This document shows positions 1 to 64,000 of a stretch of 64,000 nt of DNA, in pieces. The notes below the pieces were generated by a model, which saw only the letters and a program-made list of their open reading frames with translations, was not told the DNA's origin and ran no database searches. Within the stretch, counting starts at the first letter, position 1, and each line of letters opens with the position of its first letter. The DNA is taken from the NCBI GenBank assembly GCA_964187785.1, contig OZ076409.1, forward strand, positions 71,860,001-71,924,000. The letters run 5' to 3'. The translations under genes and the position numbers were made by a program. This DNA is from Amphiscolops sp. MND2022 (taxonomy: Eukaryota).

Positions 1-606
1 TGAATGCATGTGGAAAGTACTCGGATAGACGAGAAAAATGAGCTATTATAAATCTCTGTAGCTTAACCTGACGTTGACTTATGACAATTTTAGTGTGAGC
101 TTGCTATGTGAGAAAAAAATTCAAAATTGGAAATCGAAGCTAAGTCTCATCCAAAACTCATCGGAACACGTTCAATCCATCCCAGAGCGGTTTAATTCCA
201 GCTATATAATGCAGCAACACTATTCAAGACCATTTGATCCACTTACATTAGTTTTGACACCGTATTATTCATCCGAGAGCACAAAACAGTTGAGTACATT
301 CCATCTCCCTTTCGGGGGAGATGAGAATGTACTCGCTAAAGTCCAGGTACTACAGCCCATATTTGTTTTTATGCGACGCTTTTATGGTTTGTATGCTAGT
401 GCGTACACGTATTAATCTTTTAACATATTTTTTGTCGTCTGCAGTTTGCTTTTGACTTGACATAAACTGAACGTTTTGTCCTTAAAACATACACATTACT
501 AACGTCAACGCCCCATCCTTGCATCAACGCCCACCGTCCGTGGGCATGCCGAGGCATGCCCTTCGACGACGTATACCAAGATATACATAAGCGCGGTAGC
601 CGCTAG
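1..606 (+). mobile_element. 3' part of a C-like element (truncated by window)
   Basis: Similar to ~8120-8900. Carries the GAGTACATT...AATGTACTC hairpin (292-334), the palindrome (542-561) and a CTAG end. Confidence 0.7.
542..561. promoter_or_regulatory. Invariant 20-bp palindrome; candidate protein-binding site or p53-family element (first of 21 exact copies)
   Basis: GGGCATGCCG|AGGCATGCCC starting at 542, 1922, 3312, 5294, 6673, 8858, 15576, 17562, 19549, 21538, 26302, 28280, 30314, 35083, 37075, 39064, 43822, 48258, 57127, 61884, 63872. The sequence is certain; the function is inferred. Confidence 0.55.
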
Positions 607-1993
607 GTGGTTGGGGCGGTCCCCAGAACGCACAAGGAGGCGCGGGGAGGGTCCTGCGCCGACGTAGAATAATTTCATATAATACTAGTATCCTACATGG
701 GTGTTTTAGAAGCGATTTTGGAATCTAACCGTAGGATTTGGATAATTTTTTGCATGCGGCCACAACTCGAAATTCTAAGAACTTTTTCCTACTGTCATTT
801 TCCCCGCAAATTGTTTTTTGTTGACTTATGGCCGAAAAACCGGAAATAACGTCCTTTTTAGACGTTATATCCGAAGTGTTGTCATAACTTTTTTCCAGGG
901 CATGCTAGCGTTCTCCTTCACTTTTACACTTAGTTGCAGCATCTCGAAATACAACTGGTGGAAAATTTTGGTTGCATTCGGATCACCCCCCACCGAGATA
1001 GAAGGGTTCCCCCCTCCAGATTTACCCCCCAAATTTGCAAAAAAGCCAATTTTGAGCATGAAGCCGAGGATTTAGCGTACCCGCACCCTTCTGATGTTTT
1101 GTTGTACGTATTGGGGTCAATCTGACGACATGTGTGGTTTTCACCCCCAACCCCCCCTGGGACCGGAAATGACACTTTTTTGTGTTTTTTGGCAGAATTT
1201 AGCCTTTTTCATTATTAGACAGTCGTTTTAGGGACTCATAGCAGGATATCGAAATTGAAATACAACCTGATCACAACCCAGTGACAACATGTTGGCCACT
1301 TGGATGTACCATCATGACCGGAAGTGGGGTCAACCCCCCTTTTTGTGACCGCTTTTTGACCTTGTGCACCAAAATGCCAACAACTTGAGGCCTAATGACG
1401 CATTCAAATCTGTACAAAGATAGAGTGTTAGACAACTGAAGTCCCGGAAGATCTTTAGCATATACCGGAAGTTACCCCCATGACCGGAAGTTACCCAATG
1501 TGACCGGAAATGGTCCAAAAATTAATGTAAAGTTGAATTTTTCACTATTTCAAGACCACTTCATTGAACATTTTCAATCCCAAAACTAGCGTACTGGCTT
1601 GTTTTGCTGAATTTATGGAAATTGATGAGCTCTATCACCCCCTATAGCCTTTGAAGTTGACCTTGCGTCAACTTTGGAGGCTATCGATACTGAAAATGAA
1701 CAAGAAAGTACATTGTTGCTCTCGGTTTTTTCCCGTTGTTTTTCCTCAAACTTTCTTGAGACATATACATGGCCGTTAGTTGAAATCAATATTTAGCCCA
1801 TGTTATAGCTGGAGCAGTGAAGCGTTACACAGACTAGTGTGGTTTTGAAATTACATTACTTAAATTAACAACTGACCGTCTTAGACAACTCCACACATTC
1901 ATACCAACGCCCACCGTCTGTGGGCATGCCGAGGCATGCCCTTCGACGACGTATGACGAATCCACTCCAACGACACCCGCAGTCCTCAGCTAG
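607..1993 (+). mobile_element. Family A element (1387 bp)
   Basis: GTGG start, CTAG end; close copy at +1387; internal hairpin 1644-1684; palindrome 1922-1941. Confidence 0.75.
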
Positions 1994-3383
1994 GTGGTCG
2001 GGGCGGTCCCCAGAACGCACATGGAGGCGCGGGGAGGGTCCTGCGCCGACGTAGAATAATTTCATAAAATACTATTATCCTACATGGGTGTTTTTGAAGC
2101 GATTTTGGAACCTACCCGTCAGATTTCGATAATTTTTTGCATGCGGCCAAAACTCAAAATTCTAAGAACTTTTTCCTTCTGTCATTTTCCCCGCAAATTG
2201 TTTTTTGTTGACTTATGGCCGAAAAACCGGAAATAACGTTCTTTTTAGACGTTATATCCGAAGTGTCGTCATAACTTTTTTCCAGGGCATGCTAGCGTTC
2301 TTGTTCACTTTTACACTTAGTTGCAGCATCTCAAAATACAACTGGTGGAAAATTTTGGTTGCATTCGGATCACCCCCCACCGAGATAGAAGGGTTCCCCC
2401 CTCCAGTTTTACCCCCCAAATTTGCGAAAAAGCCAATTTCGAGCATGAAGCCGAGGATTTAGCGTACCCGCACCCTTCTGATGTTTTGTCGGACATGTTA
2501 GGGTCAATCTGGTGACATGTTTGGTTTTCACCCCCAACCCCCCCTGGGACCGGAAATGACACTTTTTTGTGTTTTTTGACAAAAATGAGCCTTTTTGATT
2601 AGTAGGGAGTCGTTTTTGGGCCTCCTAGCAGGATATCGAAGTTGAAATACAACTTGATCACAACCCAGTGACAACATGTTGGCCAGTTGCAGGTACCATC
2701 ATGACCGGAAGTGGGGTCAAACCCCCCTTTTTGTGACCGCTTTTTGACCTTGTGCACCAAAATGCCAACAACTTGAGGCCTAATGACGCATTCAAATCTG
2801 TACAAAGATAGAACGTTAGACAACGGAAGTCCCGCAAGCTCTTTAGCATATACCGGACGTCACCCCCCATGACCGGAAGTTGTCCAATATGACCGGAAAT
2901 GGTCCAAAAATTCATGTAAAATTAACTTTTTCACTTATTGAAGACCACTTCGTTGAACATTTTCAATCCCAAAACTAGCGTACTAGCTGGTGGCGTTGAA
3001 TTTATGGAAATTGAGGAGCTTTATCACCCCCGATAGCCTTCGAAGTTGACCTTGCGTCAACTTTGGAGGCTATCGATTCTGAAAATGAACAACAAAGTAC
3101 TTTGTTGCTCTCGTTTTTTTTCCGTTTTTTTCCTCAAATATTGTTGAGACATACACATGGCCGTTAGTTAAAATCAATATTTTAGCCCATGTTATAGCGT
3201 GAGTAGCGAAGCGTTACACAGGCTGGTGTGGTTTTGAACTGTAATTATTTTAAAATAAAAAAAGACCCTCTTAGTCAACTCCACACATTCATACCAACGC
3301 CCACCGTCTGTGGGCATGCCGAGGCATGCCCTTCGACGACGTATGACGAATCCATTCCAACGACACCCGCAGTCCTCAGCTAG
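1994..3383 (+). mobile_element. Family A element (1390 bp)
   Basis: Tandem diverged copy of 607-1993; palindrome 3312-3331. Confidence 0.75.
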
Positions 3384-5371
3384 GTGGGCGGGGGTAATTC
3401 CCCAACAAAAAAATCGGCCGGCGGGTCGGGTCCTGCCGGCCGTCCAAAATCAAAATCCTCCTAGTAGAAAACGGCATGTCAAACGAGCTATTTTTTTATT
3501 TAACCATACGAATTTCACCATTTTTTGCATGCGGCCCTGAAATGGCCATACGAGACGAAGTTCCTGCTGACGTTTTGCGATGTAAATGTTTTATAAAAAG
3601 TTATGGCCGATTTGTCATTCACCTAGAAGGGTAAAATGAGGAAAATTTTAACAAAGTCGCTGATAACTCAAAATGTGTTAATTTTTGGACTTTGACTGTG
3701 AAACAAGCTTGGAACCTTCATTTCGTGGCTGTGGCATTGCATTGAACACAAAAGATGTAAGGTTTTTACATTTTTTGAAAATTCGACATTTTTGAAATTT
3801 TTTTCACTACTATCAGTACCCCATATGTCAAAAACACCTCAGAAAAAAATTTTTATTTGCTTTAAATTGGAAACCTTGGTATCCATGGTTTCTGTCGGAA
3901 CCTACTCGCAGCCAAATACCCAACAGTTTGCATCCAATGTGAAAATAAAAATTTTTTCGGGGTCATAAGCGTTTCACAAGGATTTCTCAACTTAGTATTA
4001 GTTTACAAAATGGTCATTTTGAACATAATATTTTCATCGAGGCTTGTCGGCTATAGCCTTAATGTTCTAGAACGGTCCCACTGGCAACGTAGCAACCATT
4101 TATAGTAATATAAAAGGTTAAAAATTTTTTTTCACCCGGTCTTCAGTCATTTTTCAGACATTCGGAACATAACTTAGAAAATTTTCGACCCAAATACCCA
4201 TTTTTTGTCAGGTCGAAAATTAAAATTCAGCTATTAAAGCAAAATTATTTACTCTGACGTAACCAATGGGGCCCATGATACTCAAAAACACCATTGGCAC
4301 TGGTACCAATGGCTCCAATAACATATGAGTCGCGATAAGACGTTATTTTGAGCAATACGTCTCAGTTGAGGTAAAGATCTCGCAAGCCAGCGATCACTGT
4401 GAAATGTGATTTCATCAAAAATTTACTCATTTTTGTCAATAACTATGTGCACAGAGTGTGTAGGGTGAGTTCCAGCACTATAATGAGGTTTTTGAAGGCA
4501 TCGGGTTGCTCAAGGGGTGGTATGAGACATTTTTTTCCTATATACTACTGTGTTTTCCAAAACTTTTAGCCCATTATCAGGAAAAAATAATTTGACAAAA
4601 TACTTTCAACTACTTTATTCAAAGGTTACAATATAGATGAACACTGTGGTTGATCAGAAACTTTCATCTCTTTCGTTTTCCGAAATAATTTCCTTCGAAT
4701 GTGTTACATTTGTAGCCGGAAAAAAACCGAAACTAAAAAATACGCGATTTTGCTGAGATAGAACCGGGATAATTGTGTCTAAATACTCTTTAAATACTTC
4801 TAACGCGACCTTACGGACCCAAAAGGATTAAAAATGCCACTCACAATGCTGACATGTGCTCTTTCGACGATCCTGGCTGGACAAGTTTTGCAAATTTTTC
4901 AAGTACCTGTTAACTGAATTTTGTGATAGCCTTTTAAGTTGGCCTTGTGTCAACTTGGGAAGGCTATCACATCAAAAAACTTTCAACAAAAATACTTTTT
5001 GTTTATTGGATATTGCTGTCGATACCTTTTTTTGTGATTCTATACTACCGTTAGTATATTCCATCAGGTCACCAGACGATTGTATTCAGTATTTGATAAA
5101 AACTTATGAACTCGAAGTCTTTTTCATATGTTTTTTGTTCAAAAAAATTATCAAAAAAAATTATATTATAAACAATTGAGTCTTTAACTTTTTTATTTCC
5201 CAATTTTCCAGTGTTATTAGGCTCATCAACTTCCTACTGCCACATCCAGACATTAGTACAACGCCACAAAGTGTTGCGACGTCCACCGTCTGTGGGCATG
5301 CCGAGGCATGCCCTTCGACGACGTATGCCAAAAATAGCGCCCTCCGCGGTCACTACCGCGGTAGCAGCTAG
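3384..5371 (+). mobile_element. Family B element (1988 bp)
   Basis: GTGGGCGGGGGTAATTCCCC head; hairpin 4922-4971; palindrome 5294-5313; ends CCGCGGTcactACCGCGG-TAGCAG-CTAG. Confidence 0.75.
4922..4971. other. Conserved internal hairpin class I (representative copy)
   Basis: GATAGCCTT..AAGTTG..loop..CAACTT..AAGGCTATC in A, A', B, D and E elements. Confidence 0.85.
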
Positions 5372-6749
5372 GTGGCGGGGGTGCCTCATGCCCCTCAAAA
5401 AATCACGAGCGCGGGTAGGGTCCTGCGCGAGTTCAAGAAGTGAAACATCGATATTTCGAAGCAACACTTTTGGAAGCTATCTTTTTATTGAACCATACGA
5501 TTTGAACCATTTTTTGCATGTGGCTTTAGAATCAGGTTATAAGAACTTTTTCCTGCTGACAGTTTAACCGGAAATCATTTGGTGTTGACTTTTGGCCAAA
5601 AAACCGGTTATAACGTCGAAAATCAACGTTATATCCGAATTGTCGTCGTAACTTTTTTCCAGGGCGTCCTAGCGATTTTTGTTGCTCCTACATTGCGTTG
5701 CAGCATGTGAAAATACATCTGCTGTGAAATTTTGGTTGCAATCGGATCACCCCCCTCCGAGATTGAGGGGTACCCCCCTCCAATTTTACCCCCAAAATTT
5801 AGGAAAATGCCAATTTTGAGCATGAAGCTGTGGATTGAGCGTGTCCGCACCCTGCTGAAGGATTGTCGGGCGCATTAAGGTGAATCCGATGACATGTGTA
5901 GTTATCACCCCCAACCCCCCCTGGGACCGGAAATGACCCTTTTTTGTGTATTTTGACAGGAAGTTGTGGTTTTCAGTCGTAAGACGTTGTTTTATGTTCG
6001 CTTTACAGGGTATCAAAGTTGAAACACAGCATGAGAACAACTTAGTGACCACATTTTGGCCAGTCGGGGGTAACGTAATTACCGGAAATAGGGTCGAAAC
6101 CCCCCAAAATTGATGTTTTTTGACCATTATGACGTTTATTGATCGCGTATAGGTCCGATAGGTCTCATTAACTATTGTCAAGATGAACAGCTGATCAATT
6201 AACGATGTCTTAACGACGCTTTCAGAAACCGGAAGTTAACCCTCGACCGGAAGTGGTCCATTTTGACCGGAAATGGTGCGAAAAATAGATCAAAAACGTC
6301 TTTTTTGTTTAATTTCTGTATACTTCGTCAGATATTTTTGAAATTTTGAAGGTTGTGGTTGAAAGTAGGATTAAAAGACTGAATCGCTGCAGAATGATGA
6401 TCACCTTTGTCACCCCCCGATAGCCTTCCAAGTTGACTTTGGGTCAAGCTTGAAGGCTATCTGTTATGAAAACAAAAAACAAAGCAGGACCCCCTGTCCC
6501 CGTGGTTGTTAAATTCTGCTTAGATCAGTTCAATGCAGAGAGTACTTTGGTTAAGGTAAACAAATAGCGTTACTTTTACGTTTCTTATAGTTGTTCACCC
6601 CCACCCGCCAAAATTTCATGCACCTCCCCCCTCAGTACAACGCCACATAGCGTTTCGACGCCCACGGTCTGTGGGCATGCCGAGGCATGCCCTTCGACGA
6701 CATATGCCAAATGAGCCTTTCCCGCACTCTGGAGTGCGGTAGCAGCTAG
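5372..6749 (+). mobile_element. Family A' element, divergent relative of A (1378 bp)
   Basis: Colinear with A (CGGATCACCCCC, TTTTGAGCATGAAGC, CCCCCCTGGGACCGGAAATGAC); different head and 3' hairpin CCGCACTC-tg-GAGTGCGG. Confidence 0.72.
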
Positions 6750-8926
6750 GTGGAGGTTATTTTATAATAATTAAAGTGTTTTTTTCCGGAGTTTGTGGCT
6801 TTGGAAAAAACAAAAGGCGAGAAATTGGGCACTCCGGGCTGAACCGTATACACTCAAAATTCGCCCAATATTTATACGATCTCGAAACTCAGCCGTACGA
6901 TTTGGCTGAAAATTTGCATGCGTCTAAAAAATCAGATTCTAAGAACTATTTCCTGCTGACATTTTTTTGAAATTTTTGTGTACGTTTCCCCCCCGCCCCC
7001 TAAAGGGGTCAATTTTCCCCAATTTTGCACTTATGAGTCAAATTCTCAAAACTGGTGGATCTGAGCGTATTCCCGGCGGGGACAACTTTTAACGAGCGCT
7101 CCTCAGTAGACCTTTTTGACTTTTTACTTTGGTGGTACGTTCACCCCCCGAGGAGCAAATGGCGTTTTTGTGACTTCCGGTCGAGGCTTTTTTCACCCAA
7201 AAAATAGAATTAAGCCAATTTTGAGCAGGAAGGAGTGGATTTAAAGTGCCTGTACCCTGCTAAAAATTTGTTGGGCTTGTAGCGATATATCTCATACCAA
7301 GTCTGGTTTTCACCCCCAAACCCCCCTTGGGACCAAAATTCACCCAAACTTTTTTTACCTCTGTTTGTAGTTTTTTGCAAAATGTCGTCATTTCCATGGG
7401 TAAGGAGTTGAATTAGGGGCTCCTAATAGGGTACCAATGTTCAAGTACACTTGCAGTGCAACTGAGTGACCCTTTTGGGGCCACTCCTGTGTTCGGCAAG
7501 GACCGGAAGTGAGGTAAACCCCCCTTTTTTGACGTTTGTTGACCTTGAGACTCGCGCTTAGATGACGTTTATGTCGCGCAAATCCTACAAACCAGTATTA
7601 GGATGACATGCTAGCCAACTAGAGAGCACTAAGGGAAACTATACTATACCGGAAGTAACCCCCCGTGACCGGAAGTTGTCATTTTTGACCGGAAATGGTC
7701 CAAAACATAGCGTAAAGCAGTTTTCATTGCTTTTAAAGTCAACTCATTACTTTTTTCAGTCTGCGCGAGCTTGTCTTCAGATTCGTTTTTGTTGTCCGTG
7801 CACACTACAACAAATATACATCTGTAGAAATTGTGCTATAATATCGTCGGAGAGAGAAATAACGGGAATTTTTTTCAAAAATGTTTGTCTATATCTATCA
7901 TTTTTACCCAACGTTATTCAACAGTAGAACCACAGGGGTTAGTATCTGCCAAAATATATGCCTAACAAAACCACTCGTCCCATTGGTTGCAGTTTGAGCG
8001 TTCTAGCTTTGCTTGGTCACAAGTTGAGGGACTTCAAAAAGTTTCAAATTTTTTTGGAAAATTTTTTTTAAACGTCACGTCTCCCAAAGTTAAGAATTTT
8101 CCACACAACTAGGATTGCAAGAGAATGCACATGGTAAGACCTATAAATGGAGAGAAAAATTCCGTTCAGAACGTCTCTTTATCGTTACGTGACGTTAAAA
8201 GATGTTGCTTTGAATGTGAATTTGATAATGCGTCGAGAAGTAAAAGAGTGTGAATGGATCCTATGTCTCGACAAATACTCATCGCAATACATACGATGAA
8301 CCCCAATTACCCTCACTTTCAGTTGGCTAGTACATCAGCGTCTTCCAAGGACCGTTTACCTATTTGAAAATTGTCAAAATCATTATTAATATCAGTTAGC
8401 AAGAAATATTTGAGTACATTGTCATCTCTCCCCATCGGGTGAGATGAGAATGTTCTTGCTAAAAGTCAAGTACTACGGCCCATTTTTGTTTTATTGCGAC
8501 GTTTTCTGTGCCTTAGCACAAGGATACTTTTATGTCATCTCACTTTTGTAATACAATCTGACTTGTTGTTATAAATTTCTCGTCATTACTTTACCTAAAC
8601 TTACTACCATGCATCTTTAACGTCAAAGCCAAATTCATTTAGACGCCCACCATTCCGTAGGTATGCCGAGGTATGCCTTTCGAAGACGTATGGCAAAACA
8701 CAAACGGGCAAATGAAAAGGGCTGAAATTCAGAAACAGTCACAAACAATTTTGACTATTTGACCGATGGTAGGTTTTTATATGGAACTTACACATCACTG
8801 ACATTTCAAAACATTCCAGCTGACGCCCACTTACAAACATCAACGCCCACGGTCCGTGGGCATGCCGAGGCATGCCCTTCGACGACGTATGGCAAATACT
8901 TTTTACGACGTCCCAACTTTCCCTAG
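6750..8926 (+). mobile_element. Family C element (2177 bp)
   Basis: A-related middle (GCCAATTTTGAGCA, TTTCACCCCCAA, ACCGGAAGT triplet); decayed palindrome ~8660-8677 plus intact one at 8858-8877; CTAG end. Confidence 0.7.
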
Positions 8927-11900
8927 GTGGTTGGGGCGTTATTCCCCACGAAGTTCGCGGCCGCGGGAGACGGGACCCGCGGACCGCCCATCCAATGCAA
9001 AAATATACACTCTAAACAGCACCATTATAAACACGATCTCGAAAATGAACCGTAGGATTGTCTTGAAATTTTGCATACGGATAGAAGAGAAAATTCTAAG
9101 AACTTTTTCCTGCTGGCACTTTTCCGAAAAAAATGTCCTTCATGGGTTTTTTGGGTTTTTTTGGTTTTTTTCTCATCTTTCTCATCTTTGATTAATCAAT
9201 CACCGAATCAAAGGCCATTTTCAGCATGAATGAATGCCCGTAGCAGCAAAGTGCACATTTACAAAAATCATCAACGGTCAACGGTCTTTCGAACGGTCCA
9301 AAAAATTTTCCCCCGGGGGGCATCCAAAGTGCCGAAAAGTGCCAAAATATTTTTTTGGTCTGAATCATTTTGATGAAATTGTTGATTTGAGCAGCAGGAA
9401 CGGTCCGCACGGTCTCGGACCATAAGGTCAAAAATTGTCAGTGAGTTATGGTGACGACCAAAATGACATTGGTTGAGCTGTAGGAGGCCTCTGAAAAAAT
9501 TTGAATTTTTTGAGTCTACAATCCGAGCTGAACTGTTACGTATTATGAACTTTTCAGTACTATGTTGCCAATGACCGAGTACAGATAGATGCATGGGTCA
9601 GCCTTATTGAAATGAACATTGGGCACTGGGCTACCGATTGAGTGCAAAAATTATAGCCTAGTTGCTGTAGTCGAAGAAAAAAATTCTCAGAAGTGTTACT
9701 TTCAATTTGTCATGTTGACTCGGAGTTACAAAAAGGTGATTTTCTCGCCAACAACGGTCCGAACGGTCTTCGACCATGAGATCAAAAATTGTCAGTGTGC
9801 TATGGTGACGCCCAAAAACCCACCGGAACAAGCGTAGGATGCTTCTGAAAAAATTTCGAATTTTTACGTCGGCCCAAGAGTTATTGTGTTACATCGTAAC
9901 AACTTTTCGTGTATGCATATCTCCTGACAGAGTACAGATAGCATCATGGGTCACCTTTATGAAAGTGAACGTGGGCCACTGGTGAACTGCATGGTTATAA
10001 AAAACTTAGACTAAGTGCTGCACGGCGTGAATAATATGCCAAGATGTGTTATTTACGATATTTTAGCACGACTCGGACTGACAAAAAGCCTATTTCTGCC
10101 CCAGCAACGGTCCAAACGGTCATCAAGTGTAAGGTCAAAAAATGTCAGTGTGACATGATGGCGCCTAAAAACCCACCAGAACATTGGTAGGAAGCTTCTG
10201 GAAAAAATTCGAATTTTTACGTGGGCCCGAGAGTTATGATGTTGCATCGTAGCAACATTTCGTGTATGCATATCTCCTGACAGAGTACAGATAGCATCAT
10301 GGGTCACCTTTTTGAAAAAAAACGTGGGCCACTGGTCTATCGATTGGTTGTAAAAAGTTTTCAATCACTGCTGCACGGCGTGAATAATATGCCAATATGG
10401 GGTATTTAGCATTTTTTTGCACGACTCGGACCTACAAAAGTCCCATTTCTGCTCCACCAACGGTCCGTACGGTCTTCAACCATAAGGTCAAAAAAGTCAG
10501 TGTGCTATGGTGACGCCCAAAAACCCACCAGTACACTTGTAGAGTGCTTCCGAAAAATTTTGGAATTTTTAGGTGAGTCCGAGAGTTATAGAGAGTTATG
10601 TTGTCACATCGTAACTACATTTCGGGAATGTATATCTCCTGACACAGTACAGATACCAACATGGGTCATATTTTGGAAAGTGAACGTGGGCCACTGGCCT
10701 ACCGAATGGTGATAAAACGTTTTCACCAGTTGCTACAGGGAGTGATAAAAGTGCTTACATGGGTTACATAGCATTTTTTCAGGCGGCTCGGACTTACAAA
10801 AAGCTCATTTGCTCGCGAACAACGGTGTATACGGTCTCCACTCAGAGGGTCGAAAATTTTTCGTGGGCTATGGTGACGCTCAAAAACCCATCAGTTTACT
10901 TGTGGGATGATTCTGTAAAAATTTAGTGTTTTCGTGCAGTCTATGTTACATATTACATTGGGAACCGTGTTTTTTTCTCACCAAAATCATGTTTCTGAGT
11001 GCCCAAAAACAATTTTTAAAGCCCAGTAGCCACCTAAAATGTTCTTTTGCATAACATGGGATGTGAATAACGTGAAGAAAGTGCTCACTGTGGATTTGGA
11101 GTTATCTCGAAAAAATCAGCTGCCATTAGACGTTACATTACAGAAAATCGTACCTTACATATCGATTCATGGGTTGAGTCAAAAACAGCTAAAGTTCTTT
11201 TTCAGTCAATCAAGACACTTTTTTGTTCACAACCAAGTGTACAGCTGACGTCGAACCTATTTTGACCTTTCACAATGGTTATAATGCGATTTTGAGGGAC
11301 AAAAGCCTCGTTGACCAACAAAGTTCCAAGATGAAATTGCTTTCCAAATCATTTTTTGAAGTATAGGAACGCCATTTTTTGGCGACATCCATCAAATATC
11401 CACTTCTTTTGGCCCAGTGGCTTGTGAAAAATACAACTGGGCATTGACAAGGCACATGGAACTTAATTCGAGTAGTCATGTGCCACAACATTTGCTAATC
11501 GATAGCAAATTTTGTTGAAAATTGATACAACATCACATTTTTGGTGGTCTCAAAATGACAAAATGGAGCTTCAGCAGCAACTATTGGCTTTTAGTGGAAC
11601 TCACTGGCACTGTAGTTTAGGAAAAATAGGTTTACAGTAGTTTCATGCTACTTTTTTAGAATCTGAGGTACATAAAAATATCATACTGAATAGACATATG
11701 ACTTAAACATTGGAATTTTTCCGGATGTGTCACCACTTTTTTGGTATCAGCGGTCCTACCAACACTGTTTTTGGTCTACAACTAAAACCGAGGATCCACC
11801 AAGGTGTATATCAGACTTGTAAAATCAATGCAAGGACTTTCGACATGTCAAAAGTACTGATAAGAAGAGAAACTTCTCAAAAATTTATGTTATGTGTCAT

Positions 11901-13658
11901 ATTCCATTCCACGTTTTTTAATCGGTGCTTGTCGGTTATAGTATTAACGCTCAACAACAAGCTTACTGACAAGAAACAACTTGTTAACAGTTATTAAAAG
12001 TATTTATAATACCACCATGCTCGGTCTTGGCACATTTTTCATCCCATTCGGTCTTAACGTGTAAATTTTACTTCCCAAAAACCCTATTTTTGTCAGGTCG
12101 AAATTCGAATTTTTGTGTTTTGATCAATATTATTGTGTCTGACGTAACCTGTGGCCTCCAAAATACTCAAAAACAATAGTATGACTGCTATCAAATGCTT
12201 CAGTGATATGTGGGGCACGTTAACACGTTTTGGTAGGAACAATTCCACTTTGAAGTGAAAATTTGGAAGACACATTGTGTCAATAAAAACTGAATAGGTG
12301 AAAAACGTACCTAACTCTCGTCAATTAGTATTGATGTAGTAACTGTGTTGCGAATTAGAGGTCTATAGAGTGGTGTATGGGAAAACTGTGGCGCTTAAAG
12401 CGTTGTTCATAACAAAGTTCTTCCAGTAACTACTATTGTGTTTTCAAAAGTTTCACTATATTTCACATATCCACAGAATGTGATTGATGCCACCTAGTAA
12501 TGGAAAACCACTGTCGAATCTTCTTTAGTGGACTCAACAGTCCTGAAAATCACAGACATACATCATGTTTCATAATTATACGATCGAGGCTACACAATAA
12601 TTTATTTCCGCTAGTTGCTGATAACTGAATTTCCTGATAGCCTTCCAAGTTGGCCTTGTGTCAACCTGGGAAGGCTATCAGTACAAAACACAAAGAACAC
12701 AGCTTGTTGTTGCCTTTAATTTGCTGTTGTTTTCGTTAAGATTCTATGGTACCGTTTCTTTATAACATGTGGTTAACATAAGACAATTTCTCTCGGTATG
12801 GAACGACATCCATTGATAAGAAAGATTACAGTTTTTTAGTTGAAAAAGACCTTGAAACTAGTGCGCAATTCATGCAATTCATCCAAAAAGCTCAATCATT
12901 TCAATACTTTGCGTCACATTGAGCGTCACGAACCACAATACTCCCTTTAACTGACAGTACAAAGACACATCATCATTTGACCGTCCACAGAGCGAAGGCG
13001 TGGCGAGGCACGCCTTTCGAAGTCCTTTGGCAAAAAAGTACTAACGTCCGTTCGTGACGCATACGAAAAACTCTTTTCATTTCAACAATCGTCATAAAGC
13101 ATATTCGTTATATCGTCTTTTGGTTACATTTGTGCAGTGATACCTTTATCAGTGAAATATTAAGTTATACCTAGGTAACAGCAGTTACTTCGTGATTACC
13201 AAAGTGATATCAAAATGTTGTTACATAAATATTTCTGACAGCGGAATTCCGAAGTGTCATTAGGTACTTTTGCAGTGCTCGTTAGGAAAGCGAGTACTTT
13301 TGCTTGGACCAAACATGCTTGTATCAGATTGGTCATGTGAAGGCAGGTAACGGAATCAAAACAATGTTCCTCATCAGCTTTTTGGTAGGGTCAGAAACAC
13401 AATGTTTCCTTTTTACCGTCCCCCAATTGTTTGTTAGCTTCTGTTCATAGAGAATTGTTTCTGCGCAGACCAAAATATAGCAAGTTATCCAATACGCCTG
13501 ATATCGGTTTTGCCCCACAGAGAACTATCACTTAACATTTTTGTATGTTGACATCTTTTTACCCCGTAGTTCAACAACTCATGCACCTTCATTTCTTCTT
13601 CAACAACTAACTCGCCACCTCCGTGTCGTCTCGTGGTTTGTTTAGCCTCCAGCGCTAG
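8927..13658 (+). mobile_element. Family D element (4732 bp)
   Basis: Second copy at 50475-55210 has the same boundaries; internal ~354-bp repeats; variant palindrome 12995-13016. Confidence 0.75.
9399..10930 (+). repeat. Internal tandem repeat, ~354-bp unit, ~4.3 diverged copies
   Basis: AACGGTCCGNACGGTC...TCAAAAA-type anchor at 9399, 9753, 10106, 10459, 10821; end approximate. Confidence 0.85.
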
Positions 13659-15647
13659 GTGGGCGGGGGTAATTCCCCAACAAAAATTACGGCCGGCGGG
13701 TTGGGTCCTGCCGGACGTTCAAATAGCGCGAAGCATCTAGTAGAAAACAAGGAGTCCTGAAACAGCGATTTTAAAATTGAACCGTTAGAATTTGGTTTTA
13801 GATTGCATGCGGCCCTAAAATCCCCATACGAATGGAAGTTCCTGCTGGCGTTAAGCGATTGAAATAATATATAAAAAGTTATGGCCCATTTTTGGGTCAC
13901 CGAGAAGGTCAAAATGAAGAAAATTTTAACTAAGTTGCTGATAACTCAAAATGTGTTAATTTTTGGACTTTGACTGTGAAACAAGCTTGGAACCTTCATT
14001 TCGTGGCTGTGGCATTGCACTGAACACAAAAGATGTAAAGTTTTTACATTTTTTGAAAATTCGACATTTTTGATTTTTTTTTCACTACTATCAGTACACT
14101 ATATGTCAAAAACACCTCTGAAAAAATTTTTTATTTGCTTAAAATTGGAAACCTTGGTATCCATGGTTTCTGTCGGAACCTACTAGCTGCCAAACACCCA
14201 ACAGTTTGCATCCAATGTGAAATTAAAATTTTTTTCGAGGTCTTAGGTGTTTCACAAGGATTTCTCAACTTAGTTTCAATTTACAAATTGGTCATATTGA
14301 ACACATTATTTTCATCGAAGCTTGTCAGATACCGCCCTAATGCTCACTAATGGGCCTACTGGCAACGTTGGAACCGTTTAGAGTAATAGAAAGTAATAAA
14401 AAAATTTTTTCACCTGTTCTCCAGTCATTTTTCAGACATTCGGAACTTATCTTAGAAAAATTTCGTCTCAAAAACCCATTTTTCGTCAAGTCGATAATTG
14501 AAATTCACCTTTTTATGCAGAATTACTAACTCTGACGTAACCAGTGGTGGGGCCCATGATACTCAAAAACACGATTGGGACCGGTACCAATGGCTCCAAT
14601 ATCATATGAGCCGCGATAAGACGTTATTTTGAGCAATACGTCTCAATAGAGGTAAACATCTCGCAAGTCAGGGATCACTGTGAAGTGTGATTTCATCAAA
14701 ATTTTACTCATTTTCGTCAATCACTATGTGCACAGAGTGCGTTGGGTGAATTCCAGCACTATAATGAGGTTTTTGAAGGCATCGGGTTGCTCAAGGGGTG
14801 GTATGAGACATTTTTGTCCCATATACTACTGTATTTTCCAAAATTTTTAGCCCAATATCTGGAAATACAAACTTGACAAAATACTTTCAACTACTTTATT
14901 CAAAGGTTACATTATAGATGAACACTGTGGTTGATCAGAAACTTTCATCTCTTTCGTTTTCCGAAATATTTCCCTTCGCATGTGTTATATTTGTAGCAGA
15001 AAAAAAATCGAAACTGAAAAATACGCTATTTTGATAATATAGAATCGCATTGATTGTGCCTAAAAACTCTTTAAACACTTCTAACGCAACCTTACGGACC
15101 CAAAATGGATGAAAATGCTATTCACAATGGTGACATGTGCTCTTTCTACGATCCTGACTGAACAAGTTTTGCATATTGTTCAAGTACCTGTCAATTGAAT
15201 TTTGTGATAGCCTTTCAAGTTGGCCTTGCGTCAACTTTGGAAGGCTATCACATCAAAAAATTTTCATCAAAAATCTTTTTTGTTTATTGGATTTTACAGT
15301 CGATACCTTTTTTCGTGATTCTATACTACCGTTAGTATATTCCATGAGGTCATCTTACGATTGCATTCAGTCTTTGATAAAAACCTATGAACTCAAAGTC
15401 ACATTTATATATTTTTTGCCCAACAAAATCATCAAAAATATCTAAAATATGTAAAATAGAGTCTTTACCTTTTTTAAGTTTCAAGTTTCTGCCGTTATTA
15501 AGCCAATCAACGTCCTAGAGCCATATCCTGTCATACTGTACAACGCCACATAGTGTTGCGACGTTCACGGTCTGTGGGCATGCCGAGGCATGCCCTTCGA
15601 CGACGTATGCCGAATACCGCGGGCCTACGCCCGCGCTCCCCGGCTAG
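13659..15647 (+). mobile_element. Family B element (1989 bp)
   Basis: Colinear with 3384-5371; palindrome 15576-15595; ends GCGGGC-ctac-GCCCGC-GCTCCCCGG-CTAG. Confidence 0.75.
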
Positions 15648-17639
15648 GTGGGCGGGGGTAATTCCCCAACAAAAAAATCGGCCGGCGGGTCGGGTCCTGC
15701 CGGCCGTCCAAAATCAAAATCCTCCTAGTAGAAAACGGCATGTCAAACGAGCTATTTTTTTATTTAACCATACGAATTTCACCATTTTTTGCATGCGGCC
15801 CTGAAATGGCCATACGAGACGAAGTTCCTGCTGACGTTTTGCGATGTAAATGTTTTATAAAAAGTTATGGCCGATTTGTCATTCACCTAGAAGGGTAAAA
15901 TGAGGAAAATTTTAACAAAGTCGCTGATAACTCAAAATGTGTTAATTTTTGGACTTTGACTGTGAAACAAGCTTGGAACCTTAATTTCGTGGCTGTGGCA
16001 TTGCATTGAACACAAAAGATGTAAGGTTTTTACATTTTTTGAAAATTCGACATTTTTGAAAATTTTTTCACTACTATCAGTACCCCATATGTCAAAAACA
16101 CCACAAAAAAAATTTTTTATTTGCTTTAAATTGAAAACCTTGGTAGCCATGGTTTCTGTCGGAACATACTCGCTGCCAAACACCCAACAGTTTGCATCCA
16201 GTGTGAATTTAAAAATTTTTTCGAGGTCTTAGGTGTTTCACAAGGATTTCTCAACTTAGTATCAAATTACAAATTGGTCATTTTAAACACATTATTTTCA
16301 TCGAAGCGTGTCAGATACCGCCCTAATGCTCACGAACGGGCCTACTGGCAACGTTGGAACAATTTATCGTAATAGAAAGTTTTAAAAAAAATTTTTCGCC
16401 CGGTCTTCAGTCATTTTTCACACATTCGGAACTTAACTTAGAAAAATTTCAACCGAAAAACCCATTTTTTGTCAGGTCGAAAATTCAAAGTCAGCTTTTT
16501 AAGCAAAATTATCAACTCTGACGTAACCAGTGGGGCCCATGATACTCAAAACAACGATTGGGGTTGGTACCAATGGCTCCAATAACATATGAGTCGCGAT
16601 AAGACGTTATTTTGAGCAATATGTCTCAATTGAGTTAAAGATCTCGCCAACCAGTGATCACTGTGAAATGTAAATTCAATAAAAATTTACTCATTTTCGT
16701 CAATCACCATGTGCACAGAGTGCGTAGGGTGAGTTCCAGCACTATAATGAGGTTTTTGAAGGCATCGGGTTGCTCAAGGGGTGGTATGAGACATTTTTTT
16801 CCTATATACTACTGTATTTTCCAAAAGTTTTAGCCCATTATCTGGAAAAACTAACTTGACAAAATACTTTCAACAACTTTTTTCAAAGGTTACAATGTAG
16901 ATGAACCCAGTGGTTGATCAAAAATTTTCATCTCTTTCGGTTTCCGAAATAATTCCCTTCGAATGTGTTACATTTGTAGCAGGAAAAAAACCGAAACTAA
17001 AAAATACGCGATTTTGCTGAGATAGAATCGCAATGGTTGCCCCTAAAATCTCTTTAAATACTTCTAACGCGACCTTATGGACCCAAAATGATTGAAAATG
17101 CCATTCACAATGCTGACATGTGCTCTTTCGACGATCCTGGCTAGACAAGTTTTGCATATTTTTCAAGTACCTGTTAACTGAATTTTGTGATAGCCTTTTA
17201 AGTTGGCCTTGTGTCAACTTGGGAAGGCTATCACATCAAAAAACTTTCATCAAAAATACTTTTTGTTTATACAATAATGTAGTCGATAGTTATTTTCGTG
17301 ATTTTACACTACCGTTAGTACCTTCCGCCAGGTCAGCTGACGATTGCATGCTGTCTTTGATAAAAACGTATGAACACCAAGAAAATTTTGTTGTATTTTT
17401 GTTGAAGAAAAGTATTAATAAATAATAAAAATATAATTCTAACCTTAAACAACTATAAATTTGCTTAACCGTTATTAGTCCTACCACCTATCATCAGCCT
17501 ATGCCATGGCCCGGTGATTAGTAGTACAACGCCACATAAAGTAGCGACGCCCACAGTCTGTGGGCATGCCGAGGCATGCCCTTCGACGACGTATGGCAAT
17601 TTTAGCGTAGCCCGCGGTCACTACCGCGGTAGCAGCTAG
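15648..17639 (+). mobile_element. Family B element (1992 bp)
   Basis: Head nearly identical to 3384; palindrome 17562-17581. Confidence 0.75.
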
Positions 17640-19620: not shown

Positions 19621-21615
19621 GTGCGGGGGGGAAACCCCAACAAAATTTTTGGAGGATTCGGGTAGGGTCCTGAATCCGAGTTCAGTGCTGCCAGCTTTCG
19701 TTAAGAAAATTTGGATAGGATTCGGGATCTCGTGATCTAACCATAGGATTTTAAAGTTGGAGCGGCCCCCACCAGATTTTCCGAAAATTAGCGCCCCCCA
19801 CCGGGTTCCATACCCCGGAAAATTTTTTTCTGGCCACACGGGCGACCGTTAGGGGGTCATTTTAGGGGTAAAATTCATATTGGGCCACATAACTTTTTTT
19901 CTGTTGATTTAAAACTTTGGGACCCTGCTAAAAGTTTCTTGACCGTGTTGCAGGGGCCCCGGAGGTCCAAACCAAATTTTTCTATCTTGAAGCTATCTCC
20001 AAGTACCCCCCCGCCCAAAACGTTATTTTTCCGGAAACGCAGGTTTTTGACCCGGAAGGAGTCGTCGGAGCGCGGGGTCGTTAGGTGATGTATTGGGGAC
20101 GGCCTTGAGACGAAGTGGGGGACATGTAGTTTGTCAACCTCAGTTTACCCCTCGGACAGGAAATGACCGTTATATGAGCGGGAAAATTGCCCCCCTCCAC
20201 GTTTTACCGCTATTTCCGGTGTGAAGGAGTGGGAGTAGCGCGTCGGGTGCCATATATCAAAAGTAGGTTTAGACAAGGACCTATCGGAAACATGTAGTTT
20301 GGGACCCCCTGGACCAACCCGTTAGCGGGAAATGGCGCTTCCGCCTCCTTTTTTTACGGTTAAAAACGGAAAATGGGCATTGAGGGGTAAATATCTCGTG
20401 AACGCGTGGAGCTACGGTGTCCTTCACTACTACAAGGTTTCATACCCATGATATGGTGCCTTCAGGGGGGCAAACAGATTTCCGCTATCTATCACCGTTA
20501 CGGACTTGGCCCCCCAGCCTAACCGTTAAGTGACCGGAAATGTCATATTTTGAACCCAAAGGGTGGGTCCCAGCCGGGGAACGTTAGGTAACTTATTGTA
20601 GTACTCATTGAGACGAGTTGGGGGACATAGTTTCAGTCACCCCCCGTTACCCCTTGGGACCGGAAATGACCGTTATGTGGGTAAAGTTGCAATTTTTGTA
20701 CTTTTTGAAGGGCAATTAGGTGCGGAAGGAGTGGTAATAGGTGCTTGGACACTATATGATGGAAGGGAGGATGTGAGGCGAGCGTTCGGAAATAACCGTT
20801 ATGTTGACCCCAAAGTCCCCCTGGTACCGTAAACGACCGGAAATGGTCAAATTTTGTGTCTATTGGGTACAAATGTTTGGTATTCTGTAAATATAAGTAT
20901 CTATTAGGTGTTTCGACGGTTTGCAGTTGTGAACATAGTCATGAAACCTTGTGGGGGTAACGGTATATAGCACCGGAAATCCGAACCGTTGGAGACAGGA
21001 TAGGTTTTTTGCTTTCAAAATGCCTATAAGCGTATTTTTGTGGGTTGAATTGTCATAATATCGACTATTTTGGATGTTTTTCTGACATTAAATGTATTTC
21101 CGATAGTTTCAGGGACCTCCATTGCTTCAATCAACTTAACCGTTACCTTATGATAGCCTTTCAAGTTGCCCTCGTGTCAACTTGGAAGGGCTATCCTTCA
21201 AAAATCGTGAATCAAGTGTGTTTTTGAGTGAGTTTTTATTACTTTAGTATCAATTAGATCTTAATAATCAAATTGTTAACGACAAAAACTATGTCGTGAT
21301 GATACCGTTAGTAGCAGAATAGTTAACAACTAGTTGATAAAGTTGATTTTTTGCCTTTTAAATGTTTCCTAGAAGTCAGGAAAACAATTTACCTCATAAA
21401 TGGTACTGATTGAACCCAAGTAACAGCTGAAAAAAAGTTGAACATTATTTTTTCGTTTCATTATGGAAGCAAAAACCTCACTTATTAGTTTCATTAACGT
21501 CAACGCCACATACTTTACATCAACGCCCACGGTCTGTGGGCATGCCGAGGCATGCCCTTCGACGACGTATACCAAATTCCTCCAACACAACACCCTCGAG
21601 CGCGGTAGCAGCTAG
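19621..21615 (+). mobile_element. Family E element (1995 bp), single copy, GC-richer interior
   Basis: Starts GTGC; interior unique in the window; keeps head hairpins, GATAGCC hairpin 21152-21195, palindrome 21538-21557 and CTAG end. Confidence 0.7.
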
Positions 21616-25190: not shown

Positions 25191-25410
25191 ACCATAATAT
25201 GTTCCATATAAGAAGTGAATCATTCCACATATATACCCGGTCTAATATTTCCAAATTAGCGATAACATTTATACATGATGGTTTTCGAAAGTGAGCTTCA
25301 TAAGAGGTTGAGATGTAATAATACGTAAATGGACCCTAAGTTTCATTGAAATCTCAATGGAATACGTCCAATCAACTTCAATCCTAACTATTATATAACA
25401 AAAAACACTT

Positions 25411-25452
25411 GAGTACATTCCATCTCCCCATCGGGGGAGATGAGAATGTACT
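25411..25452. other. Conserved internal hairpin class II (representative copy)
   Basis: AGTACATTC-CATCTCCCC-atcg-GGGGAGATG-a-GAATGTACT in C and F elements (292, ~8412, 25411, 34186, 42932, 47698, 60993). Confidence 0.85.
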
Positions 25453-26378: not shown

Positions 26379-28383
26379 GTGGGCGGGGGTAATTCCCCAA
26401 CAAAAATTACGGCCGGCGGGTTGGGTCCTGCCGGACGTCAAATAGCAAAGAATATCTAGTAGGAAACGGCGACACAGAATCGCGATTTTTAAATCTAACC
26501 ACAATTTTTTGGACTTGGAGTGCATGCGGCCCTGAAATGCCCATACGAATCGAAGTTCCTGCTGACGTTAAGCGATTGAAATAATATATAAAAAGTTATG
26601 GCCCATTTTTCACTCACATAGAAGGGTAAAATGAGGAAATTTTTAACAAAGTCGCTGATAACTCAAAATGTGTTAATTTTTGGACATTGACTGTGAAACA
26701 AGCTTGGAACCTTCATTTCGTGGCTGTGGCATTGCACTGAACACAAAACATGTAAAGTTTTTACATTTTTTGAAAATTCGACATTTTTGAAATTTTTTTC
26801 ACTACTATCAGTACCCCATATGTCAAAAACGCCTCAGAAAATAATTTTTATTTGCTTTAAATTGGAAACCTTGGTATCCATGGTTTCTGTCGGAACCTAC
26901 TCGCAGCCAAACACCCAACAGTTTGCATCCAATGTGAAAATAAATTTTTTTTCGGGGTCATAAGCGTTTCACAAGGATTTCTCAACTTAGTATTAATTTA
27001 CAAAATGGTCATTTTGAACACAATATTTTCATCGAGGCTTGTCGGCTATAGCCTTAATGTTCTAGAACGGTCCCACTGGCAACGTAGGAACCATTTATAG
27101 TAATAGCAAGTTTTAAAAAAATATTTTCACCCGGTCTTCAGTCATTTTTCAGTCATTCGGAACTTAACTTAGAAAAATTTCGACCAAAATACCCATTTTT
27201 TGTCAGGTCGAAAAATCAAATTCACATTTTTAAGCAAAATTATTAACTCTGACGTAACCCATGGGGCCCATAATACTCAAAACAACGATTGACACTGGTA
27301 TCAATGGCTCCAATAACATATGAGTAGCGATAAGACGTTATTTTGAGCAATACGTCTCAATTGAGGTAAAGATCTCGCAAGCCAGCGATCACTGTGAAAT
27401 GTGATTTCAACAAAAATTTACTCATTTTTGTCAATCACTATGTGCAGAGAATGCGTAGGGTGCGTTTCAGCACTATAATGAGGTTTTTGAAGGCATCGAG
27501 TTGCTCAAGGGGTGGTACGAGACATTTTTGTCCCAGATACTACTGTATTTTCCAAAATTTTTAGCCCAATATCTGGAAATACAAACTTGACAAAATACTT
27601 TCAACTACTTTAATCAAAAGTTACAATATAGATGAACACTGTGGTTGATCAGAAACTTTCATCTCTTTCGTTTTCCGAAATATTTTCCTTCGCATGTGTT
27701 ATATTTGTATCAGAAGAAAAATTGAAACTGAAAAATACGCTATTTAGCTAATATAGAATCGCAATGATTGTGCCTAAAAACTCTTTAAATACTTCTAACG
27801 CGACCTTACGCACCCAAAATGATCGAAAATGCTATTCACAATGGTGACATGTGCTCTTTCAACGATCCTGGCTGGACAAGGTTTGCATATTTTTCAAGTA
27901 CCTGTCAGCTGAATCTTGTGATAGCCTTTTAAGTTGGCCTTGTGTCAACTTGGGAAGGCTATCACATCAAACAACCATCAACAAAAATAATTTTTGTTTA
28001 TTGGATATTACAGTTGATACCTTATTTCGTGATTCTATACTACCGTTAGTATATTCCATGAGGTCACCTTACGATTGCATTCAGACTTTGATGAAAACCT
28101 ATGAACTCAAAGTCACATTTATATATTTTTTGCTCAAAAACATCTATTATATATAAAATTGAGTCTTTAACTTTTTTACGTTTCAAGTTTCTGCCGTTAT
28201 TAAGCCAAACAACTTCCTACAGCCACGCTCTCTGTCATACTGTACAACGCCACATAGTGTTGCGACGTGCACGGTCTGTGGGCATGCCGAGGCATGCCCT
28301 TCGACGACGTATGCCGAATACCGCGGGCCTACGCCCGCGCTCCCCGGCTAGATGCGCGCCCGCACTTGTGCGGTAGCTGCTAG
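26379..28383 (+). mobile_element. Family B element with doubled 3' end (1973 bp + 32 bp)
   Basis: Normal end CTAG at 28348-28351, followed by a second hairpin plus CTAG ending at 28383. Confidence 0.75.
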
Positions 28384-53400: not shown

Positions 53401-55210
53401 AAAGTACTGATAAGAAGAGAAACTTCTCAAAAATTCATGTTATGTGTCAAATTCCATTCCACGTTTTTTAATCGGTGCTTGTCGGTTATAGTATTACCGC
53501 TCAACAACGAGCTTACTGGCAAGAAACAACTTGTTAACAGTTATTAAAAGTATGTATAATTCCACCATGCTCGGTCTTGGCACATTTTTCATCCCTTTCG
53601 TTCTTAACGTGTAAATTTTACTTCCCAAAAACCCTATTTTTGTCAGGTCGAAATTCGAATTTTCGTGTTTTGATCAATATTATTGTGTCTGACGTAACCT
53701 GTGGCCGCCAAAATACTCAAAAACAAAAGTATGACTGCTATCAAATGCTTCAGTGACATGTGGGGCACGTTAACACGTTTTGGTAAGAAAAATTCCACTT
53801 CGAAGTGAAAATTTGGAAGACACATTGTGTCAATAAAAACTGAATACATGAAAAACGTACCTAACTCTCATCAATTAGTATTGATGTAGTAACTGTGTTG
53901 CGAATTAGAGGTCTATAGAGTGGTGTATGGGAAAACTGTGGCGCATAAAGCGTTGTTCATAACAAAGTTCTTCCAGTAACTACTATTGTGTTTTCAAAAG
54001 TTTCACTATATTTCACATATCCACAGAATGTGATTGATGCTACCTAGTAATGGAAAACCACTGTCGACTCTTCTTTAGTGGACTCAACAGTCCTGAAAAT
54101 CACAGACATGCATCACGTTTCATAATTATACGATCGAGGCTACACAATAATTTATTTCCGCTAGTTGCAGATAACTGAATTTCCTGATAGCCTTCCAAGT
54201 TGGCCTTGTGTCAACCTGGGAAGGCTATCAGTACAAAACACAGAGAACACAACTTGTTGTTGCCTCTAATTTGCTGTTGTTTTTGTTAAGATTCTATGGT
54301 ACCGTTTCTTTATAACATGTGGTTAACATAAGACAATTTCTCTCTGTATGAAACGACATCCATTGATAAGAAAGATTACAGTTTTTTAGTTGAAAAAGAC
54401 CTTGAAACTACTGCGCAATTCATGCAATTTATCCAAAACGTTCAATCATTTCAATAATTTGCGTCCCATTGAGCGTCACGAACCACTATACCTCCTTTAA
54501 CTGACAGTACAAAGACACATCATCCTTTGACCGTCCACAGAGCGAAGGCGTGGCGAGGCACGCCTTTCGAAGACCTTTGGCAAAAAAGTACTAACGTCCG
54601 TTCGTGACGCATACGAAAAACTATTTTATTTTCAACAATCGTCATAAAGCATATTTGTTATATCGGCCTTTCGTTACATTTGTGCAATGATACCTTTATC
54701 AATGAAATATTAAGTTATACATAGGTAACTGCAGTAACTTCGTGATTACCAAAGTGATATCAAAAGGTTGTTACATAAATATTTCTGACACAGCGGATAT
54801 CCGAAGTGTCATTAGGTACTTTTTCAGTGCTCGTTAGGAAAGCGAGCACTTTTGCTTGGACCAAACATGCTTGTATCAGATTGGTCATGTGAAGGCAGGT
54901 AACGGAATCGAAACAATGTTCCTCGTCAACTTTTTGGTAGGGTCAGAAACACAATGTTTCCTTTTTAACGTCCCCCAATTGTTTGTTAGCTTCTGTTCAT
55001 AGAGAATTGTTTCTGCGCAGACCAAAATATAGCAAGTTATGCAATACGCCTGATATCGGTTTTGCCCCACACAGAACTATCACTTAACATTTTTGTATGT
55101 TGACATCTTTTTACCCCGTAGTTCAACAACTCATGCACCTTCATTTCTTCTTCAACAACTAACTCGCCACCTCCTTGTCGTCTCGTGGTTTGTTTAGCCT
55201 CCAGCGCTAG
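50475..55210 (+). mobile_element. Family D element (4736 bp)
   Basis: Copy of 8927-13658; variant palindrome 54545-54566. Confidence 0.75.
50948..52480 (+). repeat. Internal ~354-bp tandem repeat
   Basis: AACGGTC anchors at 50948, 51302, 51655, 52008, 52371. Confidence 0.85.
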
Positions 55211-63943: not shown

Positions 63944-64000
63944 GTGGCGGGGGGCTGTCCCCAATAGAATATAGTGAGGTAGGGTAGGGTTCCCTACCGA
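63944..64000 (+). mobile_element. Start of another element with a new head variant
   Basis: GTGGCGGGGGG-ctgt-CCCC then GGTAGGG-tagggtt-CCCTACC hairpin; same architecture as other heads. Confidence 0.65.

Follow-up and report, generated by a model that had tools for sequence, protein, structure and literature searches.

An invariant dyad resembling a p53-family response element near the 3' ends of a one-way stack of non-coding, Helitron-like units in Amphiscolops sp.

The window analysed here, a 64-kb stretch (64,000 nucleotides) of contig OZ076409.1 of Amphiscolops sp. MND2022, is occupied on the plus strand, from 607 to 63943, by 24 complete units of 1.07-4.77 kb each, arranged head-to-tail and accompanied by two partial ones. 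The units form a stack of several related families that keeps a single orientation throughout the window, and the self-homology is likewise all same-strand (none of 873 BLASTN hits falls on the minus strand). Successive units meet at a CTAG/GTG junction, of which there are 25 on the plus strand, the first at 603..609 and the last at 63940; the word CTAGGTG occurs 32 times on both strands (25 of them on the plus strand) against 2.5 expected on both strands, and the junction logo reads GCTAG/GTGG. All 25 junctions show CTAG at the 3' end and GTG at the start of the following unit (or TG, should the cut be one base further on), with no TC start. Every junction in the window joins one element to another and an empty site is absent from it, while the exact cut is uncertain by one base, CTAG/GTG or CTAGG/TG.

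Unit bodies were grouped by BLASTN coverage (Table 1). The ten copies of family B are 78-96% identical (mean 86%, with 57.5% of columns invariant), a divergence on account of which a collapse of the assembly was rejected. The type of 3' tail tracks the body of the unit that carries it (none of 20000 permutations was as high) and not the unit that follows (p=0.76 for its body, 0.40 for its head), in a permutation test uncorrected for the segmental duplicates that occur in the window. The boundary is therefore the junction, and neighbouring units have no preference for one another, as is expected if units insert singly at existing junctions; a boundary at the dyad described below was rejected, because the sequence downstream of the dyad tracks the body of the unit in which it lies. 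Runs of several units are also duplicated (8920-17119 versus 50468-58671, 93% identity; 21501-28354 versus 57092-63946, 97% identity), meaning that the stack grows by the copying of unit runs as well. The last 115-125 bp are 90-95% identical among units with unrelated bodies (U04 versus U13 and U11), and one unit, U18 (43899-48329), is a chimera of a B-long body with a last 524 bp that is 99% identical to a B unit. Family F consists of two tandem 1.07-kb units (48330-50474), 92% identical, which share the 5' head and have neither dyad nor terminal hairpin. The CpG observed/expected ratio is 0.955 over the whole window and CpG hypermutation is absent in family B, which suggests an array free of germline CpG methylation.

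Coding sequence was not found in the stack, where only 11 stop-to-stop frames reach at least 120 aa (the longest 160 aa). None of the 91 frames of at least 60 aa, taken from 11 of the 26 unit pieces, matched Pfam at the curated cut-off, and none of the 13 weak sub-threshold hits was a transposase; no Rfam match at gathering score, hence no known ribozyme or RNA family, and no RepHel-encoding partner were found within the window. Four of the five scans of viral collections and both scans of prokaryote genomes were empty; the four viral loci with a similar 20-mer from the remaining viral scan were treated as chance, having no BLAST match to the units. A lack of genes over 64 kb and the empty prokaryote scans fit a eukaryotic host.

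Table 1. Families and mapped features of the stack (positions are those of the 64-kb window).
Feature	Position	Strand	Remarks
Family A			U01, U02; U04 and U05 partly related; by BLASTN coverage
Family B			10 copies; by BLASTN coverage
Family B-long			5 copies, 336-bp internal repeat; by BLASTN coverage
Family C			U10; by BLASTN coverage
Family E			2 copies, 353-bp repeat; by BLASTN coverage
Family F			2 copies; by BLASTN coverage
U00			partial unit, own group; by BLASTN coverage
20-bp dyad GGGCATGCCGAGGCATGCCC	542..561	+	first of 21 exact copies
Other exact dyad copies (starts)	1922, 3312, 5294, 6673, 8858, 15576, 17562, 19549, 21538, 26302	+	
Further exact dyad copies (starts)	28280, 30314, 35083, 37075, 39064, 43822, 48258, 57127, 61884, 63872	+	
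Invariant 31-bp block	540..570	+	around the first dyad copy
Degenerate internal copy AGGTATGCCGAGGTATGCCT	8659..8678	+	about 250 bp before its unit's end
Variant internal copy AGGCGTGGCGAGGCACGCCT, family E	12996..13015	+	about 640 bp before unit's end
Same AGGCGTGGCGAGGCACGCCT variant, duplicated family E unit	54546..54565	+	
3' tail, example	5333..5371	+	sequence-variable terminal hairpin
5' head, example	3384..3450	+	GTG start, short G4/C4 stem, larger hairpin with G-T pair on + strand
Extra 32-nt hairpin-plus-CTAG piece	28352..28383	+	a second 3' end after a complete end
Second cross-family dyad (not p53-like), example	4925..4968	+	17 copies
Second dyad, copies	1643, 3032, 4925, 6419, 12636 and 12 more		outer arms starting GATAGCC
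Third dyad, 39 bp	294, 25413, 34188, 42934, 47700, 60995		common to U00, B-long and L001 (L001 567)
B-long 336-bp tandem repeats	23846-25183, 32622-33902, 41367-42717, 46133-47468, 59428-60778		about 4 copies
Family E 353-bp tandem repeats	9717-10924, 51266-52474		3.4 copies
Repeated ACCGGAAGT-type words	1464-1509, 2869-2907, about 7650-7710		families A and D

Close to most unit ends lies a 20-bp dyad, GGGCATGCCGAGGCATGCCC, composed of 9-bp arms and a 2-nt centre, each half of which is near-palindromic and repeats the other at 10 bp. A preliminary description of this DNA had presented it as a palindrome, met at 542-561 and 21 times in the window, that matches the p53 consensus at 19 of 20 positions with zero spacer and lies 45-58 bp before a CTAG end, and these observations all stand. 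The exact count is 21, all on the plus strand (none of 100 shuffles reached 21, the shuffle mean being 0.00), position 10 is the sole mismatch to RRRCWWGYYY taken twice, and the gap from the dyad to the next CTAG is 41-54 bp, that is 45-58 bp to the CTAG end, in 21 of 21 copies. Other statements of that description held in part. The 20-mer is indeed unchanged across families, but the fixed stretch in all 21 terminal copies is a block of 31 bp (offsets -2 to +29), in which 2 bp precede the dyad and 9 bp follow it, and column counts show near-invariant bases beyond it on both sides. The interiors, said to be unalignable, are so by BLASTN between the bodies of several families, but MAFFT aligns their opening ~200 bp from family to family and also to L001, a single locus recovered through a flank-anchored metagenome scan; the families are therefore relatives. 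Finally, the count of 21 had overlooked three degenerate internal copies, and no terminal dyad precedes four of the 25 junctions, those that close E and F units.

Among the 21 dyad-bearing ends, 14 distinct 3'-end haplotypes can be told apart, on roughly 4-5 lineages of body, and 15 of the copies belong to one body family (B 10, B-long 5) and are not independent cases. Around the block the sequence varies widely (14 haplotypes, 11 tail types) and the core is fixed; among the ten family-B copies the longest invariant run, 40 bp, lies across the dyad, the next longest being 19. Short CRACG repeats surround the block, their density reaching 19.1 per kb over the final 130 bp versus 1.07 elsewhere.

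A separate hairpin ends 10-12 nt before the 3' end; 16 of 25 units, or 5 of 11 tail types, have it in strong form and the others weakly or not at all, and its stem sequence varies freely between tail types. In Helitron1 a hairpin at 10-12 nt before the 3' end is described as the terminator (PMC5148889, PMC4778049). At the opposite end, the stem of the larger 5' hairpin covaries between families, and this hairpin is more stable on the plus strand in 12 of 13 heads, 11 of which carry a G-T pair there (the heads being related sequences and not independent counts), a strand bias that fits single-strand chemistry. Unlike the terminal and 5' hairpins, whose sequences vary, the dyad is fixed and is therefore probably recognised through its sequence; the p53-like dyad is thus distinct from the ordinary terminator hairpin and behaves as a sequence-read site.

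Terminal inverted repeats are absent from all 11 units tested, the best inverted match being 5-9 nt, which is shuffle level in nine of them and borderline and either AT-rich or internal in the remaining two. An asymmetric terminal inverted repeat, GTGGGCG with its complement, was rejected as well, being at most 7 nt long and showing no co-variation within families; no terminal direct repeat above chance size was found within the units. The copy at 28280 is followed by a first CTAG and then by the extra 32-nt piece before the junction. The second cross-family dyad lies 330-465 bp from the end in families A, B and C and about 1020 bp from it in family E. We take its centre to resemble a nuclear-receptor half-site, and the ACCGGAAGT-type words presumably resemble ETS sites. 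Short blocks in the first ~200 bp (e.g. 730-800) are kept in all families and in L001, including the E and F units, which have no terminal dyad, and could be candidate transposase or host-factor sites.

The variant copies of the dyad come from a profile search of the window, which yielded the three internal ones, and from L001. At 8659 the core C of both halves is changed to T, giving two G-T pairs and keeping a perfect direct repeat, and the copy folds no better than shuffles (z=0.37). The family E variant replaces A-T by G-C on both sides and breaks one pair, its two copies representing one event, and the L001 dyad (812-831) has its outer pair changed on both sides and keeps a full p53 match. 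When 12 of the 21 terminal copies are aligned with the three internal ones and L001, 142 of 144 cells are paired, with 2 of 9 pairs changed on both sides, the structure being derived from the aligned sequences themselves, so that a slid control leans towards structure. By a parsimony reading of seven arm substitutions on three branches and in three variant types, six of the seven keep pairing (simulated p=0.003-0.03, depending on transition bias) and only two of the seven fit RRRCWWGYYY. The central CGAG and the downstream TTCGA survive even in degenerate copies. Both CATG cores are kept in all 22 terminal copies (the 21 plus L001), and changes to them are confined to internal, possibly dead, copies. 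These variants favour symmetry constraints without refuting p53, and symmetric self-repair of palindromes could yield the same pattern without selection. Two read runs (word shares 0.13 and 0.11), searched with 3384-5600, gave 20 and 15 short contigs with low dyad depth, and no dyad variant among the best 40 of 114 rows; these reads are too thin to speak to variants, habitat or expression, and no RNA run was among the matches listed. The L001 junction (880-886) reads CGAG/GTG and not CTAG/GTG; only C-AG/GTG is thus common to it and the window, and if the cut falls one base further on, as it may, the start would be a T.

The fit to a p53-family site was scored against the 0.2 logKd consensus strings in Table 1 of PMC2807882, from which the host protein's own preference may differ. 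The two halves show 0+0 mismatches to the consensus of seven of the eight p53-family proteins and 2+2 to that of Drosophila p53, and for six of the seven fitting proteins the window holds no other zero-spacer site that fits. A random dyad of 9-bp arms and 2-nt centre comes within one consensus mismatch once per 2700-5800, or in about 1 in 3000 cases. The match to p53 is real, and the site is predicted to be bindable by p53; it is probably a by-product of a doubly symmetric, GC-rich dyad, and the resemblance is probably not the main reason for the conservation of the dyad. In terminal copies all 31 positions are invariant, the core C4/G7 among them; one internal type has lost both core Cs and another keeps C and G with a p63-type core. 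As fixed as the core in terminal copies are 11 flanking bases and the positions that p53 barely reads (half-site positions 1, 2, 9 and 10 hardly affect affinity according to PMC2807882). An origin of the CATG cores by CpG decay was rejected on the CpG ratio given above and on C-to-T rates of 0.044 at CpG versus 0.045 at non-CpG positions.

The preliminary description had left a choice between a transposase or replication dyad and a host p53-family site. The former is the better supported, through the fixed distance to the end, the invariant flanks that p53 does not read and the variants that keep pairing; the latter fits the measured p53/p63/p73 tolerances and is neither shown nor refuted. Variants that keep pairing while losing the core C and G had been named there as evidence against p53, and one such copy does occur, the internal, weakly folding one at 8659, but the family E type keeps both bases, with a CGTG/CACG core that scores 1+0 mismatches for p63. 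G at position 5 is listed as tolerated by p63, p73 and Drosophila p53 (PMC2807882), and because p63 accepts such a core the family E variant does not refute p53-family binding; the opposite reading of this variant was dropped on these measured tolerances.

We lean slightly towards a reading in which these are non-autonomous rolling-circle (Helitron-like) elements whose 3' subterminal region carries a module recognised by its sequence; the dyad would be the core of that module, and p53 could also bind there. Its constant orientation and its constant spacing from the element end both point to the machinery of transposition. It is possible, though we rather doubt it, that the dyad serves two masters, being a host p53/p63 site kept by the element while the flanks and the junction serve the transposase. 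A bound p53-family protein might then open or license the end in germline or damaged cells, or, where a circle or stack brings the two ends together, act as an enhancer immediately upstream of the 5' end. Such a dual use would agree with the mismatch-free fit of both halves to seven of eight proteins and its rarity by chance, with GGGCATGCCC being given as the tightest half-site for zebrafish p53 (PMC2807882), with a dyad that is invariant in sequence next to variable hairpins and hence read as sequence, and with variants that either keep C4/G7 and a p63-tolerated core (family E) or match fully (L001); functional p53 sites carried by transposons are moreover on record (PMC3485254). Yet p53 alone cannot account for fixed positions that it barely reads, transcription is of no obvious use to non-coding elements, Drosophila p53 is missed by 2+2, chance p53-matching hairpins are to be expected in a very large scan, and fewer than 8% of the p53 sites predicted in silico recruit p53 in mouse and human, as reported in PMC7498329. 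The p53 system itself is reported in all animal phyla (PMC5543598). We think it unlikely that the most conserved part of the 3' end was fixed as a high-affinity p53/p63 site through which the host protein controls whether or when the elements move, in germline cells or following DNA damage; joined ends would then put the site about 50 bp upstream of the 5' start, and stacks would carry roughly one p53 site per 3 kb. Least probable of all, to the point of carrying hardly any weight, is a purely host p53-family element, an enhancer or binding sink for host benefit unrelated to mobilisation: 21 sites within 64 kb that fit the measured p53-family tolerances perfectly would suit it, but a sink needs no fixed end spacing, no uniform orientation of a near-symmetric site and no invariant asymmetric flanks.

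Two further explanations were weighed. That a tyrosine recombinase of Crypton type moves the units as circles, recombining at the shared short junction with the dyad as an accessory binding site, strikes us as improbable. It would account for a mixed one-way stack with a single shared CTAGGTG between units and no terminal inverted repeats, and PMC3212892 gives Cryptons terminal direct repeats of 4-6 bp and proposes that they travel as circles; a repeat of this kind might be what the units share at their junctions, the window having element-element junctions only. However, the Pfam scan of 91 frames found no recombinase gene, the arms of the dyad measure 9 bp and its centre 2 bp, against the required 11-13 bp arms and 6-8 bp spacer, exchange does not take place at the dyad, as tails follow the upstream body, and the strand-biased hairpins with G-T pairs suggest single-stranded intermediates. 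It is very unlikely that the block is uniform merely through recent swapping or gene conversion of 3' modules in a satellite-like array, without selection by a protein. The near-identical last 115-125 bp on unrelated bodies, the chimeric U18 and the large segmental duplicates are what such homogenisation would leave behind, but the sequence adjoining the block differs widely among the 14 haplotypes and 11 tail types around an unchanged core, and in L001, which comes from a different collection, the module persists with a change on both sides.

A transposase recognition module thus remains the reading we favour, and around the anatomy, boundary, invariance and symmetry of variants observed in the sequence we would add, as the inferred part, an enzyme, its binding and a route and target of insertion. 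An enzyme probably of HUH type, encoded elsewhere in the genome, would act in trans, bind the 31-bp module together with its short repeats and cut the plus strand at the CTAG end, aided by the separate terminal hairpin; no transposase or autonomous partner was found in the window or through the scans of viral and prokaryote collections, so the enzyme class is assigned from the ends. The cut CTAG end would be joined to the GTG start, and because end-then-start reads exactly as a closed circle would at its joint, junctions already in place could serve as targets, each new end recreating a junction, so that the insertion of different families would build a one-way mixed stack, later amplified through segmental duplication. 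Failed recognition might lead to read-through and new ends, as at the internal copies (8659 and family E) and the extra end at 28352, and 3' modules would move between bodies, as the near-identical ends and U18 suggest. Several points count against the module as we read it, namely the GTG/TG start in place of TC and an apparent target, the junction, that is not A-T, the four of 25 units without terminal dyad and nine of 25 without strong terminal hairpin, the rarity of the p53 fit by chance together with terminal CATG cores that are all kept, the small set of variants (three types, about seven substitutions) and the CGAG junction of L001.

Were the block a transposase module only, it would define a non-canonical Helitron-like group, with a GTG start, an extra invariant dyad, insertion at its own junctions and mixed-family stacks, and provide a compact map of the end features that a HUH transposase reads as sequence versus shape. 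Were the host p53 or p63 to bind and matter, this would be a DNA transposon that wires its mobilisation end to a DNA-damage or germline checkpoint. The two readings are separable by a few point changes within the 31-bp block.

The units resemble Helitron1 (HLE1; Helraiser/Helibat), as described in PMC4778049, PMC11417382 and PMC5148889, in their 3' CTAG, in the strong hairpin that 16 of 25 units have 10-12 nt before the end, in the lack of terminal inverted repeats, in head-to-tail end junctions and in bypassed and newly gained 3' ends; the second or bypassed ends at 8659 and 28352 recall the read-through described for Helraiser (PMC4778049). They differ from Helitron1, as portrayed in the same sources, by starting with GTG/TG and not TC, by a junction that is not A-T, by the absence of a RepHel partner from the window, and by adding an invariant dyad 45-58 bp from the end as well as 5' hairpins. 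Helitron2 or Helentron elements (HINE, DINE-1, FoHeli) share with them hairpins at both ends (PMC4067079, PMC5148889), a conserved module whose distance from the 3' end is about 40-60 bp and central tandem repeats (336 and 353 bp here), yet the units have a CTAG end and lack the 11-18 bp asymmetric terminal inverted repeat, T-rich ends and TT target that these accounts give for that group. In view of the GTG start and the missing terminal inverted repeat, Helitron-like is used as a working term, and the units are filed under neither HLE1 nor HLE2 as those are delimited in PMC11417382 and PMC4067079. The absence of terminal inverted repeats also separates them from a cut-and-paste (TIR) DNA transposon with CTAG duplication.

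Local head-to-tail accumulation is shared with the Helitron tandem arrays and subtelomeric stacks of PMC12001565, PMC11934779 and PMC13085455; unlike the arrays depicted there, several families alternate here at one precise junction and with no neighbour preference, and no telomeric repeat is reported between units. Replitrons and IS91-type elements offer a parallel in orientation-specific insertion at a short target and in subterminal palindromes and short repeats that are read by a HUH enzyme (PMC10288648), but in contrast to the Replitrons, which that source places in plants, algae and protists, the units show no terminal direct repeat above chance size and no Rep gene among the frames scanned. 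The families may already be catalogued in Repbase/Dfam. Literature searches, in which subscription papers are thinly covered, returned neither p53 sites in Helitrons nor mixed head-to-tail Helitron stacks with these ends among the matches listed. Helitron tandem arrays, orientation-specific HUH transposons with subterminal palindromes and transposon-borne p53 sites are each already known from the sources cited. Of the last kind, the closest is the zebrafish EnSpm-N6_DR, a non-autonomous element with a consensus p53 site in many copies (PMC3485254, which also names LTR and Alu cases). According to that account the EnSpm-N6_DR, LTR and Alu sites were shown to bind or respond, whereas for the site described here binding is predicted; it is at this site, unlike in EnSpm-N6_DR, that the end is best conserved among related families of a rolling-circle-type element.
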